Positions 51,770 to 64,000 of a stretch of 64,000 nucleotides of DNA are shown here, piece after piece. The notes beneath the pieces were generated by a model. The model ran no database searches. It was not told the DNA's origin and saw only the letters and a list, made by a program, of their open reading frames with translations. This DNA comes from an uncultured delta proteobacterium (GTDB lineage: Bacteria; Myxococcota_A; Polyangia; Polyangiales; Polyangiaceae): positions 992,001 to 1,056,000 of the forward strand of contig CAVOKF010000004.1 of assembly GCA_963696385.1 (NCBI GenBank), given 5' to 3'. Each line of letters starts with the position of its first letter. Position 1 is the first letter of the stretch. The position numbers and the translations under genes were made by a program.

Positions 51770-52630
51770 TCAGGGCGTCGTCGCTATCGCGACCGTGCGA
51801 AGCTCCCCTTCGAGTGCGGGCTTGTGCGCGAAAATGGCCTCTACCACCGCAACCGCCAGTTCGCCATGGGAGGCTCCGGCGGTCGGAATCTGCTTCGCCT
51901 TCTCCGCCCGCGCAGGCGGTGCGAAGACGCTTTTGACAATGGTGGGCGAGCCGCGCAAGCCGCATTGGCCAAGATCAGCGATTCCGGCATCGACGGCACT
52001 CCACTTGACGACCTCGGCGCGCGCCGCGCGCAGGGCATCGCCAACCGTGCCTCGGCGGATTTCGTTCGTGCCCTCGAGCATCGTAATCAGGACCGGCAGG
52101 CGGCTCTGAAGCACCTGGGTGCCGCCTTCACCGCGACGCTGCACGCAGATGATGCCCGTCGAGCGGTCGAGGTCATCGATGCGCGAGACATAGGTGAGCT
52201 GGGTGAGCCCCAATCGCTTCGCGATCCCCGGCCCAACCTGCGCCGTGTCGCCGTCGATCGTCTGTTTGCCCGTGAACACAATCGACGGCGCTCCCCATGT
52301 CTCGGAGATCTTGCCGATGGCCGTCGCCAGAGCGTAGGTCGTCGCGAGCGTGTCCGAACCCGCGAACTGACGGTCGGTCAGAAGCACGGCACGGTCGGCG
52401 CCGAAGGTAAGCGCCTTGCGAAGCGCGTCCTCGGCCATCGCTGGACCCATGGTCAGGACGGTCACCTCTCCGCCAAGCCGGTCGCGGAGGACGAGGGCCT
52501 GCTCTAACGCAAAGAGATCGTAAGGGTTGATGATGGCCGGCACGCCCTGGCGCATGATGGTGTTGGTCACCGGATGCACGCGGATCTGAGCGCTGTCGGG
52601 GACTTGCTTCATGCACACGACGATTCGCAC
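51770..52630 (-). CDS. fixA: Electron transfer flavoprotein beta subunit FixA
   Basis: IVVCMKQVPDSAQIRVHPVTNTIMRQGVP, GKQTIDGDTAQVGPGIA, CGLRGSPT. Confidence 0.95.
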   Translation of the reverse strand: MRIVVCMKQVPDSAQIRVHPVTNTIMRQGVPAIINPYDLFALEQALVLRDRLGGEVTVLTMGPAMAEDALRKALTFGADRAVLLTDRQFAGSDTLATTYALATAIGKISETWGAPSIVFTGKQTIDGDTAQVGPGIAKRLGLTQLTYVSRIDDLDRSTGIICVQRRGEGGTQVLQSRLPVLITMLEGTNEIRRGTVGDALRAARAEVVKWSAVDAGIADLGQCGLRGSPTIVKSVFAPPARAEKAKQIPTAGASHGELAVAVVEAIFAHKPALEGELRTVAIATTP

Positions 52631-52632
52631 GG

Positions 52633-53943
52633 CTAGGCTCCCACCGCCGCGCGCACAGAGCGGGGGCCGATGACTTGCTTGTAGAACTCGAGGACCTCTG
52701 TGAGCCCGACGGGGTTCTTGGTAACGGCGGCTCTCGCACGAATCTGTTCGAGAACGAGAGCCACATCGCCCGGGGCGGCAACGACCCCCAACGAGCTCAG
52801 TGCGTGAGCGACCGCAGCGCGGCCCGAGTGCTTGCCGAGGACGATTCGGCGTGTTCGACCGAAGCGCTCGGGCCGCAGTGCCTCGTAGGACTGGGGGTCG
52901 CGCAGCAGGCCTGCGACATGAATGCCCGATTCGTGCGTGAAGGCGGCTGCCCCCACGATGGATTTGCCCTCCGGGATGGGGCGCCGTGCCGTCCGAGCGA
53001 CGAGCTCCGCCAACGCGGGCAGCTGATCGGTGCGAACGCGGGTCGTGCGGCCTGCGATTTCGTCGAGGGCCACAACGACCTCTTCGAGCGCGGCGTTGCC
53101 GGCCCGCTCGCCCAGCCCCAAGACACAAACGCTCACGTGGGTTGCGCCGCCCTGTACCGCGGCGAGCGTATTGGCGGTGGCCAAGCCCAGGTCGTCATGG
53201 CCGTGAAACTCAAGCTCCATGTCCGTCTCGCGGCAGAGACGGCGGAAAATGGAATACGCCTGGAACGGGTCGAGCACGCCGAGCGTGTCGGCGAAGCGAA
53301 ACCGGTGCGCCCCCGCGTCTTCCGCCGCCAGGACCACATCGCAGACGAAGTCGGAAGCGGCGCGGCTCGCGTCCTCGCCGCCCACCGAGACTTCGAAGCC
53401 GTGGTCGCGCGCGTAGCGGACCACGCGTCGAATTCGCGCGAGAACGTCGGCGTGCCTCTCTCCGAGCTTGGCCGCGATTTGGCGCTCGGAGACCGGCACC
53501 GATAGATGCACCCGGCGGAGGCCGGTATGCGTAGCCGCCTTGACGTCCGCCTCGGTCATACGGCACCACGCAATGGCCTGGGACCGATGGAGCGCCGTGC
53601 CAACCGCGGCGACGGCCTCGATTTCGGCGCGTCCCATGGCCGGAATCCCCGCTTCGATTTCTTCGACGCCGGCTTGCTCGAGGGCTCGCGCAATCGCCAC
53701 TTTCTCTTCGAGGTCGAACACGACTCCAGGCGCCTGCTCGCCATCACGTAGCGTGCTGTCGTTGACGACGACGAGCGGCGGCGCCATGCGCGAGACAAAC
53801 GATTGCACCCGATCGAGCGTGGCGGAGACGGCACTCGAGGATGCGCTCGTCGTTGGCTTGTCGGTGCGGCTTGCCCTTGTGCTGTCGGTCCGCGCGGCCT
53901 TGTCCTGCCGCTGGGTGGTCGGACGGTTCTTGCCGTGAATCAT
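52633..53943 (-). CDS. nifV: Homocitrate synthase
   Basis: DSTLRDGEQAPG, HGHDDLGLATAN, GERAGNAALEE, FTHESGIH, LGKHSG; adjacent to nifH. Confidence 0.93.
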   Translation of the reverse strand: MIHGKNRPTTQRQDKAARTDSTRASRTDKPTTSASSSAVSATLDRVQSFVSRMAPPLVVVNDSTLRDGEQAPGVVFDLEEKVAIARALEQAGVEEIEAGIPAMGRAEIEAVAAVGTALHRSQAIAWCRMTEADVKAATHTGLRRVHLSVPVSERQIAAKLGERHADVLARIRRVVRYARDHGFEVSVGGEDASRAASDFVCDVVLAAEDAGAHRFRFADTLGVLDPFQAYSIFRRLCRETDMELEFHGHDDLGLATANTLAAVQGGATHVSVCVLGLGERAGNAALEEVVVALDEIAGRTTRVRTDQLPALAELVARTARRPIPEGKSIVGAAAFTHESGIHVAGLLRDPQSYEALRPERFGRTRRIVLGKHSGRAAVAHALSSLGVVAAPGDVALVLEQIRARAAVTKNPVGLTEVLEFYKQVIGPRSVRAAVGA

Positions 53944-54034
53944 GGCGGTCGTTTCCTGTTCGGTATCGCCCCGGGTAAGGACGAGGAGGGTCTTGGCGAG
54001 GCGGCGACGTCGCTGCCCGAATGTCGAACGCTGC

Positions 54035-54050
54035 TGCAACAGCTGTACCC
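54035..54050 (-). promoter_or_regulatory. Candidate sigma54 promoter for nifV-fixA
   Basis: GGGTAC-AGCTG-TTGCA. Confidence 0.55.
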
Positions 54051-62126: not shown

Positions 62127-62166
62127 CCGCACTGCGCGAAATGCGTCGGAGCGCAGGTTTTTCGCT

Positions 62167-62182
62167 TGGCGCGAGGATTGCT
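62167..62182 (+). promoter_or_regulatory. sigma54 promoter of nifB
   Basis: TGGCGC-GAGGA-TTGCT. Confidence 0.8.
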
Positions 62183-62235
62183 CGTCTCTCGTGGCATCGT
62201 TTTTCCTGGACCCTCACCCTAAGGCGTAAACCCAC

Positions 62236-63840
62236 ATGGCTCAGCTCATTTCGCTTGATAGCCTCAAAGGCCCTGTGTCCAGCGTCGGCATGCAGCAGGC
62301 GGTCGCCAAGACGGCTTCGCCGATGGTGTCGCTCGACGCGTTGACCGGTCCCGTCACCTCCGAGGACATGCGCAAGGCCCTTTCGTCCAAGTCGGGGTGC
62401 GAGTCCACGTCGAGTTGCGGCACCTCGGACACCAAAGACGACATGGCGGCGGAGATCTGGGAGAAGGTCAAAGACCATCCTTGCTACTCGGAAGAAGCGC
62501 ACCACTACTTCGCACGCATGCACGTGGCGGTGGCGCCAGCGTGCAACATCCAGTGCAACTACTGCAATCGCAAGTACGACTGTTCCAACGAGAGCCGCCC
62601 AGGCGTCGTTTCGGAGAAGCTCACGCCGGAGCAAGCCATGCGCAAAGTGATCGCCGTCGCGAGCGAGGTGCCGCAGCTCTCGGTCCTCGGGATCGCAGGC
62701 CCCGGCGACGCTTGCTACGACTTCAAGAAGACCAAGGCCACCTTCGAGGGCATCGTCAAGCACATTCCCGACATCAAGCTCTGCATCTCGACCAACGGCC
62801 TCGCGCTGCCCGATCACGTGGACGAAATCGCGAAGATGAACATCGACCACGTGACGCTCACGATCAACATGGTCGACCCGGAGATCGGAACGAAGATCTA
62901 CCCGTGGATCTATTACAAGAACAAGCGCTGGACCGGCCTCGAGGCGTCCAAGATCCTTCACGAACGCCAAATGCAGGGGCTCGAGATGCTCACGGAGCGG
63001 AAGATCCTTTGCAAGGTCAACTCCGTCATGATTCCCGGAGTCAATGACGAGCACCTCGTCGAGGTCAACCAGGTCGTCAAAAAGAAAGGGGCTTTTTTGC
63101 ACAACATCATGCCGCTCATCTCCGCCCCGGAGCACGGCACCGTCTACGGCCTCAACGGACAGCGCGGACCGCGGGCCATGGAGCTCAAGGCCCTGCAAGA
63201 CAAGCTTTCGCACGGCACGAAGCTCATGCGCCACTGCCGTCAGTGCCGGGCCGACGCGGTGGGACTCCTCGGCGAAGATCGCGGGCAAGAGTTCACGATG
63301 GACCAAGTGCCCGACGAGGTGTCGTACGACCCGACCAAGCGCGAGAAATACCGCGAGCTCGTCGCCCAAGAGCGCGGCGAGCACGTGGCCACGCGAGAAG
63401 CAGCCAGCGAGCAGCTCGCCGGTCTGGCCCTGGGAGCCTCGGTCCTCGTGGCGATCGCCACGAAGGGCAACGGCCGGATCAATCAGCACTTCGGACACGC
63501 CAAGGAGTTTCAGGTCTACGAAGTGTCGCGCAAGGGCGTGGAATTCATCGGCCATCGCAAAGTCGACGAGTACTGCAAGGGCGGATGGGGCGAGGACGCG
63601 TCGCTGGACGGCGTGATTGCGGCCTTGGAGGGCGTCACGGTCGTCCTCTGCGCAAAGATCGGGGAGTGCCCCAAAGACAGCCTGACCCAGGCCGGCATTC
63701 AGGCGACCGACAAGTACGCGCACGACTGGATCGAGGGCGGCATCGTGGCGTGGTACGAGGCCACCTACGGATCCGCGCCCGCGCGGGCGTCCACACCGCC
63801 GACTGCAACGTCGGCTCCTACCGTGGCCCATGTCGCGTAA
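62236..63840 (+). CDS. nifB: Radical-SAM NifB with C-terminal NifX-like domain
   Basis: HPC, CNIQCNYC, ESRPG, AGPGD, CRQCRADA, INQHFGHA. Confidence 0.98.
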   Translation: MAQLISLDSLKGPVSSVGMQQAVAKTASPMVSLDALTGPVTSEDMRKALSSKSGCESTSSCGTSDTKDDMAAEIWEKVKDHPCYSEEAHHYFARMHVAVAPACNIQCNYCNRKYDCSNESRPGVVSEKLTPEQAMRKVIAVASEVPQLSVLGIAGPGDACYDFKKTKATFEGIVKHIPDIKLCISTNGLALPDHVDEIAKMNIDHVTLTINMVDPEIGTKIYPWIYYKNKRWTGLEASKILHERQMQGLEMLTERKILCKVNSVMIPGVNDEHLVEVNQVVKKKGAFLHNIMPLISAPEHGTVYGLNGQRGPRAMELKALQDKLSHGTKLMRHCRQCRADAVGLLGEDRGQEFTMDQVPDEVSYDPTKREKYRELVAQERGEHVATREAASEQLAGLALGASVLVAIATKGNGRINQHFGHAKEFQVYEVSRKGVEFIGHRKVDEYCKGGWGEDASLDGVIAALEGVTVVLCAKIGECPKDSLTQAGIQATDKYAHDWIEGGIVAWYEATYGSAPARASTPPTATSAPTVAHVA

Positions 63841-64000
63841 CGAGGCCAGGGATAGGTCGAAGCCTTCCGAGTCGCGGCGCGACGAAGCCGACGACATTGG
63901 CGAAAAGGTCGATTGGCTCGGCCAGCCCGTCCGTTGCTCGGATTGCCCTCACCACGGGCTTCGCGACGTGGGGGGCTGCCAGGAGGGCCGCGCGTGCGTG
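63830..64000 (+). CDS. Second LRV 4Fe-4S protein (partial, runs off the window)
   Basis: VDWLGQPVRCSDCPH...GCQEGRACV. Confidence 0.85.
   Translation, partial: MSRNEARDRSKPSESRRDEADDIGEKVDWLGQPVRCSDCPHHGLRDVGGCQEGRACV

Follow-up and report, generated by a model that had tools for sequence, protein, structure and literature searches.

Nitrogen fixation in myxobacteria has so far been discussed mainly for the Anaeromyxobacteraceae, whose group I NifD and NifK are reported to form a monophyletic group with those of other deltaproteobacteria (PMC11127431). A preprint on bark mentions group I nitrogenases in "some Myxococcota" metagenome-assembled genomes (MAGs), and another source names one Polyangia MAG among mangrove diazotrophs, in both passages without origin or gene context. 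The stretch analysed here (the window: 64,000 nucleotides, G000:C4:992001-1056000) contains the left part of a nif island of ~55 kb in the genome of a member of the Polyangiaceae (G000). The island runs from ~45,500 to ~100,150, with ~36 kb lying past the window end on contig C4; coordinates past 64000 count on from the window, and the position on C4 is the value plus 992000. With good confidence, the island is read as a functional, NifA/sigma54-controlled Mo-nitrogenase system of an aerobic to microaerobic host, which goes back to one old alphaproteobacterial acquisition and is probably supplied with Fe-S clusters by a captured iron-sulfur cluster (ISC) operon.

The closest described clusters are the group I clusters of Acetobacteraceae (Gluconacetobacter, Roseomonas acroporae), to which NifD is 84-85% and NifH 88-91% identical, and whose layout "G9" is given in part of PMC11773926 as nifABZTHDKENXXaQUSVW plus fix genes. 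The island shares with them the LRV, SIR2-like, nifZ/T, DUF269, Rop-like, fdxIII, nifQ, iscAnif and nifA genes, and fixAB are also present in the Acetobacteraceae-family genomes examined. It differs in its myxobacterial host, its shuffled gene order, its two nifH genes and the lack of nifU, and it contains in addition nafY, a myxobacterial ISC operon, a bacterioferritin gene and a porin/TonB module. With the nitrogenase of Anaeromyxobacter and Geobacter it has in common the Myxococcota host and a group I Mo-nitrogenase; however, its NifD is only ~60% identical to the Anaeromyxobacter type and falls in a separate clade, and their cluster is compact, whereas the island carries fixABCX and a full accessory set of aerobic type. 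The nif cluster of Sorangium sp. So ce513 (NZ_CP150344.1, ~2.86-2.90 Mb) belongs to the same clade (NifD 88%, NifH 90%) and shares nifA, fixABCX, modABC and the NifA/sigma54 motifs, but it has kept nifU, a more donor-like order and a single housekeeping iscU.

General Fe-S systems have been implicated elsewhere where nifU or nifS is missing: Suf is reported to stand in for NifU in Paenibacillus polymyxa WLY78 (PMC8038749), and a Steroidobacteraceae MAG is reported to have Isc within its N2-fixation region (PMC11613949). In G000, the nif island contains a second, lineage-derived ISC operon, and a separate housekeeping copy lies elsewhere in the genome. The enzyme and its logic are of a known kind; the clade of Polyangia hosts, the occurrence of four nitrogenase lineages within a single family and the ISC-for-NifU mosaic appear undescribed. 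In the full-text literature, with supplements and subscription journals outside the scope, no description was found of nif in Sorangium, of this Polyangia clade or of a duplicated nif-linked ISC; supplementary MAG tables could list such nif-bearing Polyangia genomes.

Host and origin of the nitrogenase genes

The G000 genome (6.94 Mb, 8 contigs, 96.4% complete, 2.8% contaminated) belongs to a member of the Polyangiaceae of a genus other than Sorangium. Its sole 16S gene is located on the island contig and is 91% identical to that of So ce513, and its RpoB is 83% identical to that of Sorangium (G391) versus 60% to that of Roseomonas. In G391, of the same GTDB family but another genus, nifD coincides in position with the locus L017 of So ce513, and the host was accordingly placed in the GTDB Polyangiaceae. 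The Polyangiaceae-like host proposed in the original prediction was therefore the right one; 16S, GTDB family and RpoB are all myxobacterial and not proteobacterial.

In trees of concatenated NifHDKEN, the sequences of G000 are nested among alphaproteobacterial group I sequences. Nine Polyangia genomes with alpha-type NifD and G820 form one clade, comprising 10 genomes in 6 genera with So ce513 included, which is supported at 98/99 in the careful tree (25 rows) and 99 in the quick one (45 rows). This clade is sister to five Acetobacteraceae-family rows, namely Roseomonas, Gluconacetobacter and three Roseomonas-family genomes (joint support 98/99), and the Rhizobiales and one Rhodospirillaceae MAG branch outside the pair. 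A close NifK was found in 4 of the 251 genomes of the Roseomonas-family search, and FixA is 71-73% identical to FixA of the Roseomonas-family (alphaproteobacterial) nif clusters. The NifD of A. paludicola (P0197), in contrast, lies in a clade separate from that of G000; named Anaeromyxobacter were represented by NifD only, and a grouping with the Anaeromyxobacter type was rejected by the approximately unbiased (AU) test with Anaeromyxobacter-type Polyangia rows as proxies (p=5.6e-5). The trees and the FixA identities bear out what had been read from motifs, namely that NifH, NifK and FixA resemble alphaproteobacterial group I proteins and that the genes were acquired horizontally and independently of Anaeromyxobacter.

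Because the acquisition is common to ten Polyangia genomes in six genera, it is old and not private to G000. A transfer from alphaproteobacteria to Polyangia is the parsimonious reading of these sequences: the nif-fix core would have entered the Polyangia once, long ago, from a lineage sister to the sampled Acetobacteraceae, and would afterwards have undergone amelioration and rearrangement, surviving in scattered lineages only. Tests of composition (GC content at third codon positions, codon use, tetranucleotides) gave no sign of a recent transfer and the island is host-like, with third-position GC of 0.805 versus 0.792 and a codon use as deviant as that of 43% of 121 gene blocks.

Nitrogenase is rare and heterogeneous in this family. 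Of 383 Polyangiaceae genomes, 22 have a NifD over the cut-off, and these belong to four lineages; a sample of 401 genomes of the order added one from outside the family. A phylum-wide sample gave 2 of 401, both Polyangiaceae, Anaeromyxobacter not being recovered in that sample. In the NifD tree (100 rows, 40 of 80 named loci used), the 22 sequences split into nine of alpha type, eight of Anaeromyxobacter type in a clade with A. paludicola, three of gamma type and two resembling group II, which are long-branched and whose group label we infer. The named relatives of the gamma type are mostly gammaproteobacterial, as tested on G372, whose NifD is 89-90% identical to Oceanobacter, Pseudomonas and Parathalassolituus proteins. 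Judged by this similarity, the gamma-type clusters (G372:C10, G363:C379, G285:C8; L126, L127, L133) represent a separate acquisition. Within the genus of the host, nifD occurs in 4 of 30 congeners; the nif, iscU and module tallies include two unpublished genomes, G010 and G027, both nif-negative with a single iscU.

Aerobic myxobacteria may, on this genomic basis, be overlooked nitrogen fixers. Since NifH is so close to that of Roseomonas and Gluconacetobacter, nifH reads of these myxobacteria from soil and peat would likely be assigned to alphaproteobacteria. As a named Sorangium strain belongs to this clade, diazotrophy of aerobic myxobacteria can be tested directly. The genus Sorangium is cellulolytic, and if So ce513 is so too, cellulose-fuelled N2 fixation in one cell could also be tested.

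Further nitrogenase loci were noted in related genomes. G004 (C93/C83, L121, L122; C50, L123, L124; C18, L015, L016) carries a divergent alpha-type Mo-nitrogenase. Next to a porin/TonB module it has a further set of nifEN/nifA/nifD-like genes, with 40-46% and 33% identity, which is suspected to be an alternative nitrogenase. Many weak NifD homologues on one of its contigs are suspected to be bacteriochlorophyll reductases, and G004 is possibly a phototrophic diazotrophic myxobacterium. In G025, what lies behind nifK is a nifB fragment on C114 (L119) but nifEN-nifB on C116 (L120), which suggests that the structural region is duplicated or rearranged, or that the assembly is split there. In G008:C3, nifK and modB (L108, L109) are each split over two frames, likely by sequencing errors.

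Gene content and predicted regulation of the island

The 56 predicted proteins of the island region were scanned with curated NCBIfam cut-offs. The gene set comprises nifHDKENXB, a second nifH, nifA, nifV, nifS, nifW, nifQ, nifZ, nifT, fixABCX and modABC; the cut-offs were passed by nifH, D, K, N, X, B and V, and the minimum set nifHDKENB is complete, with nifE lying in two frames in the assembly. The features of the window are as follows.

45537..47997: modA and modB (+) and mop (-), for the uptake of molybdate; the left boundary of the island lies approximately here (TIGR01256 and TIGR02141 over cut-off; TIGR00638)
48074..49297 (-): iscS, myxobacterial-type paralog, 81% identical to the housekeeping IscS on C5, behind LRV1 and apart from its operon (TIGR02006 over cut-off)
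49494..50393 (-): LRV-FeS protein 1, LRV1 (PF05484/PF01816); upstream, by motif scan, a sigma54-like site at 50527 and a NifA-type upstream activator sequence (UAS) at 50636
50776..51255 (+): bacterioferritin (TIGR00754), the sole match in the G000 assembly
51770..52612 (-): fixA, electron transfer flavoprotein (ETF) beta subunit of FixABCX, an ETF-beta homologue with no model over cut-off
52633..~53943 (-): nifV, homocitrate synthase (TIGR02660 over cut-off); start codon uncertain, open reading frame open to 54063
54176..54281 (+): nifH1 promoter region, NifA-type UAS at 54176 and sigma54 -24/-12-like site at 54265 (by consensus and an ad hoc score)
54378..55286 (+): nifH1, Fe protein (TIGR01287 over cut-off)
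55389..56900 (+): nifD (TIGR01282, 856 bits)
57110..58645 (+): nifK (TIGR01286, 859 bits)
58729..60199 (+): nifE, with a 1-base frameshift at ~59087
60204..61604 (+): nifN (TIGR01285 over cut-off)
61579..62067 (+): nifX (TIGR02663 over cut-off)
62236..63840 (+): nifB (TIGR01290 over cut-off); UAS at 62111 and sigma54-like site at 62166 upstream (region 62111..63840)
63830..64645 (+): LRV2, crossing the window end

The island continues beyond the window.

63830-66875 (+): LRV2, nifZ, nifT, iscA-like gene, nifS
66943-70655 (-): captured iscU-iscA-hscB-hscA-fdx
70715-72439 (-): iscAnif-nifW-fdxN-nafY, with a sigma54-like site at 72509 and a UAS at 72582
72870-76214 (+): nifH2, nifX-like gene, DUF269, Rop-like gene, fdxIII, nifQ
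76385-80261 (-): modC, fixX, fixC, fixB
80604-87795 (+): SIR2-like, IscA-like, globin, rubrerythrins, dodecin, 2Fe-2S ferredoxin, YgfZ-like
88181-89923 (+): nifA
91866-100141 (+): HTH+PBP regulator, lipoprotein, porin, TonB receptor

The nif cluster that had been predicted for 51770..64000 is therefore real, but that stretch makes up less than a quarter of the island. The nifHDKENX, nifB, nifV, fixA and LRV genes named for it are all present and the quoted NifH and NifK peptides occur in the translations, whereas nifE is split by the frameshift and, of the two LRV genes, LRV1 lies to the left of 51770 and LRV2 crosses the window end. The proteins encoded by nifH1 and nifH2 are identical (5 nucleotide differences). 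The MoFe subunits align over their full length with solved MoFe proteins, and the residues that correspond to the ligands of the P-cluster and of FeMo-co and to the active site were found by motif: alpha C62/C88/C154/C275/H442, V70, R96, Q191, H195 and R359 in NifD, and beta C70/C95/C153/S188 in NifK (Azotobacter numbering).

Promoters were scanned with the consensus and ad hoc sigma54 score mentioned for nifH1. TGT-N10-ACA occurs 15 times in 57 kb, whereas the rate in the genome predicts 1.9; most of these motifs are accompanied by a sigma54-like site, and four top-scoring sigma54-like sites were observed versus 0.5 expected. Such pairs precede nifH1, nifB, LRV1, the iscAnif-ISC operon, nifH2, fixB and others. 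NifA is of the cysteine type (C-X11-C-X19-C-X4-C), and nifL was absent among the 56 scanned proteins, no genome-wide search for it having been made. Several nifA-like activators per island were seen in related genomes, with three in G008:C3:3069509-3081983 and at least four DNA matches on G025:C13.

The G000 genome encodes rpoN, a PII protein, an aa3-type oxidase and a cbb3 oxidase (ccoNO). Microoxic N2 fixation with FixABCX is established in Acetobacteraceae and rhizobia, and the gene complement of G000 fits such a mode. By analogy with known systems, cysteine-type NifA would activate the host sigma54 at about ten promoters at low O2 and low fixed N; FixABCX would bifurcate electrons from NADH to ferredoxin for NifH, while the cbb3 oxidase would hold O2 low. 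Mo would be supplied by ModABC and NifQ, and FeMo-co built by NifB/EN/V/X/NafY. As candidate markers of diazotrophs, cbb3-size COX1 matches and PII were rejected, since both are equally present in the nif-negative G003. Expression in the environment is hinted at by the metatranscriptome run X7, in which near-identical contigs reach a summed depth of 200-830 in the nifH-nifK bins, against 0-77 elsewhere and 0 in the bacterioferritin bin; in the DNA run X2 of the same study the depth is 27-53 except at nifH.

At the right end of the island, the HTH+PBP regulator, the unknown lipoprotein, the porin O/P-like protein and the TonB-dependent receptor (L105:3866-12141) form a Myxococcota module, which may serve the uptake of oxyanions (molybdate). 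The module is found in all four island genomes (G000, G008, G017 and G025), but it was rejected as nif-specific, with homologues in 19 of 31 congeners, nif-negative ones included.

The second ISC operon

Besides the housekeeping ISC operon on C5, G000 possesses the island copy, and the proteins of the two operons are 58-90% identical. The island copy comprises iscS, iscU (3 Cys, LPPVK), iscA, hscB, hscA and fdx; no iscR was seen with it. The three-domain NifU (TIGR02000) over the cut-off was found in none of the five nif-bearing congeners, where only IscU-length matches occurred (the G000 assembly is 96% complete), while a NifU-length frame is kept in four of the five other alpha-type Polyangia. 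Among 31 congeners, the only ones with two full iscU genes are the four genomes G000, G008, G017 and G025, three other double matches being pieces. In G017 and G025, the whole iscSUA-hscBA-fdx lies downstream of iscAnif-nifW-fdxN-nafY, and in G000 iscS has been relocated behind LRV1. Donor-type clusters have iscAnif-nifU-nifS where the island ISC sits in the G000 subclade, and the copy stands behind a NifA/sigma54-type promoter in three of the four genomes.

In a tree of six ISC proteins (33 rows, from 20 of 31 congeners and 9 outgroups), the four nif-linked copies group together (100) within the diversity of the genus, and their sister is the housekeeping ISC of G006 (98). A clade of the housekeeping ISC of the four island hosts was rejected (AU p=1.6e-5), as was RpoB monophyly of the three island hosts tested (AU p=1.3e-3). 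The housekeeping ISC and RpoB of G008 fall in a different subclade from those of G000, G006 and G025, which points to transfer of the finished mosaic island. These sequence relationships suggest that the island moved within the genus, and multiple loss also fits.

In the G000 subclade, nifU would thus have been lost and a second ISC operon of same-genus origin installed in the island behind a nif promoter. IscU/HscAB, with IscS and/or NifS, would most likely deliver the Fe-S clusters for nitrogenase, and the island operon probably takes the role of NifU. Mitochondria use ISC; if true, a nif-controlled ISC copy would bear on the maturation of nitrogenase by IscU/HscAB, with relevance to nitrogenase engineering in mitochondria.

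A MerR-family gene precedes all 29 housekeeping isc operons examined and one of the four nif-linked copies (that of G008, in two pieces). This leader (G000:C5:1438208-1438795, L170:8208-8795, and 28 Polyangia operons) has a Cys-rich C-terminus, does not belong to IscR/Rrf2 and is possibly a different Fe-S-sensing regulator.

Integrity of the island and competing explanations

The nifE gene is broken by one extra base at ~59087, and neither piece exceeds the nifE cut-off because of this split. Contig depth was examined over 20 kb of the island in 4 of 22 listed runs. In the three with depth at the site, from two studies, the base is absent (X1 10.8/10.8, X2 35/35, X7 76.7/76.7), X9 having no depth there. 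The frameshift is therefore most likely an assembly error. Further one-base differences between assembly and run contigs were seen at window positions 49317 and 55310 and at L103:18854 (3' end of nifS). Part of the stretch is present in twenty runs of 14 studies, whose labels are soil, peat, wetland or plain metagenome; ten of these runs contain at least half of it, and the one that contains most may be the source. X19 and X20 (share < 0.2) and X21 and X22 (no words) have no bearing on the island.

An alphaproteobacterial nif region might have been joined to a myxobacterial contig during assembly or binning, and the genome does appear metagenome-assembled with residual indels (four one-base differences), while no single run contig covers the whole 20 kb. 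This explanation is nevertheless hardly credible. The 16S gene shares the 1.17 Mb contig with the island, and host-type ISC genes are interleaved with nif genes across a junction that an independent X2 contig bridges (record 16, joining nifS to the myxobacterial fdx-hscA with scattered substitutions relative to the window). The same mosaic recurs in three further genomes, a related cluster lies in a complete Sorangium chromosome, and the island composition is host-like. A silent or decaying island, with nifE pseudogenised, would agree with the frameshift and with G003, a near-identical sister genome (RpoB 99.85% identical, 100% complete) without a nifD match. This reading is very improbable given the reads that lack the extra base and the intact promoter motifs and ligands.

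The role and the history of the ISC operon allow more room for doubt. The island copy might be a passenger or a general Fe-S booster that was acquired through rearrangement, while NifS, A-type carriers and the housekeeping ISC make the clusters for nitrogenase: some nif clusters lack both nifU and an ISC copy, the island holds four IscA-like genes beside nifS, NifA control of the G008 copy is not clear, and Isc genes near nif are known from proteobacteria. We consider this rather unlikely, because the copy is intact in all four genomes despite extensive reshuffling, has lost the MerR-type leader in three of them and lies in the iscAnif operon at the donor-type place of nifU-nifS. A purely vertical history, in which an ancestor of the Polyangia had nif, many descendants lost it and the island never moved between congeners later, agrees with the proximity of G000 and G025 in RpoB (95) and Nif trees, with a recent loss in G003 and with a nif monophyly of genus g1 that was not rejected (AU p=0.36). 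It is doubtful in view of the position of the nif-linked ISC clade beside the G006 housekeeping ISC, with the G008 housekeeping genes elsewhere, of the rejected monophyly of the carrier hosts, though that result alone is also compatible with losses, and of the restriction of the alpha type to 9 of 383 family genomes.

Several points weigh against an old alphaproteobacterial acquisition that was later fitted with its own ISC supply. The NifHDKEN trees were computed under LG+G4 without a mixture model, and the ISC and RpoB trees were quick ones; the Polyangia clade is sister to the five sampled Acetobacteraceae-family clusters and not nested inside them. The nifE frameshift could be a genuine private mutation. 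The ISC copy of G008 has no good same-strand sigma54 site (best score 26) and has kept the merR relic, and nifS is retained alongside iscS. In G004 (one iscU genome-wide), G820 and G1040 (Roseomonas-family, nif locus only), nifU is missing and the nif loci hold no ISC copy, so the loss of nifU does not demand a dedicated ISC. No integrase was found among the 56 scanned proteins and no tRNA in the window, att repeats lying outside the search, and bd oxidase had no match in G000. Finally, the X7 depth is contig depth, a poor measure of expression, and its nifH bin sums two copies and other organisms. With these points in mind, we put forward only tentatively the wider proposal that aerobic Polyangiaceae, a Sorangium strain among them, are unrecognised free-living diazotrophs whose Acetobacteraceae-related nitrogenase would be misassigned to alphaproteobacteria in marker surveys, and that in one subclade a nitrogenase-dedicated, NifA-controlled ISC/HscAB replaces NifU on a spreading, environmentally transcribed mosaic island.

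An empty insertion site could not be defined, as G003 matches both island flanks in scattered pieces only, and the right arm of the island has no match in G003 beyond generic domains. The left flank (window 26233-37232) is plastic, with an IS110-family transposase and a Phd/PIN toxin-antitoxin pair, and its short repeats are common to G003 at 90-100% identity.

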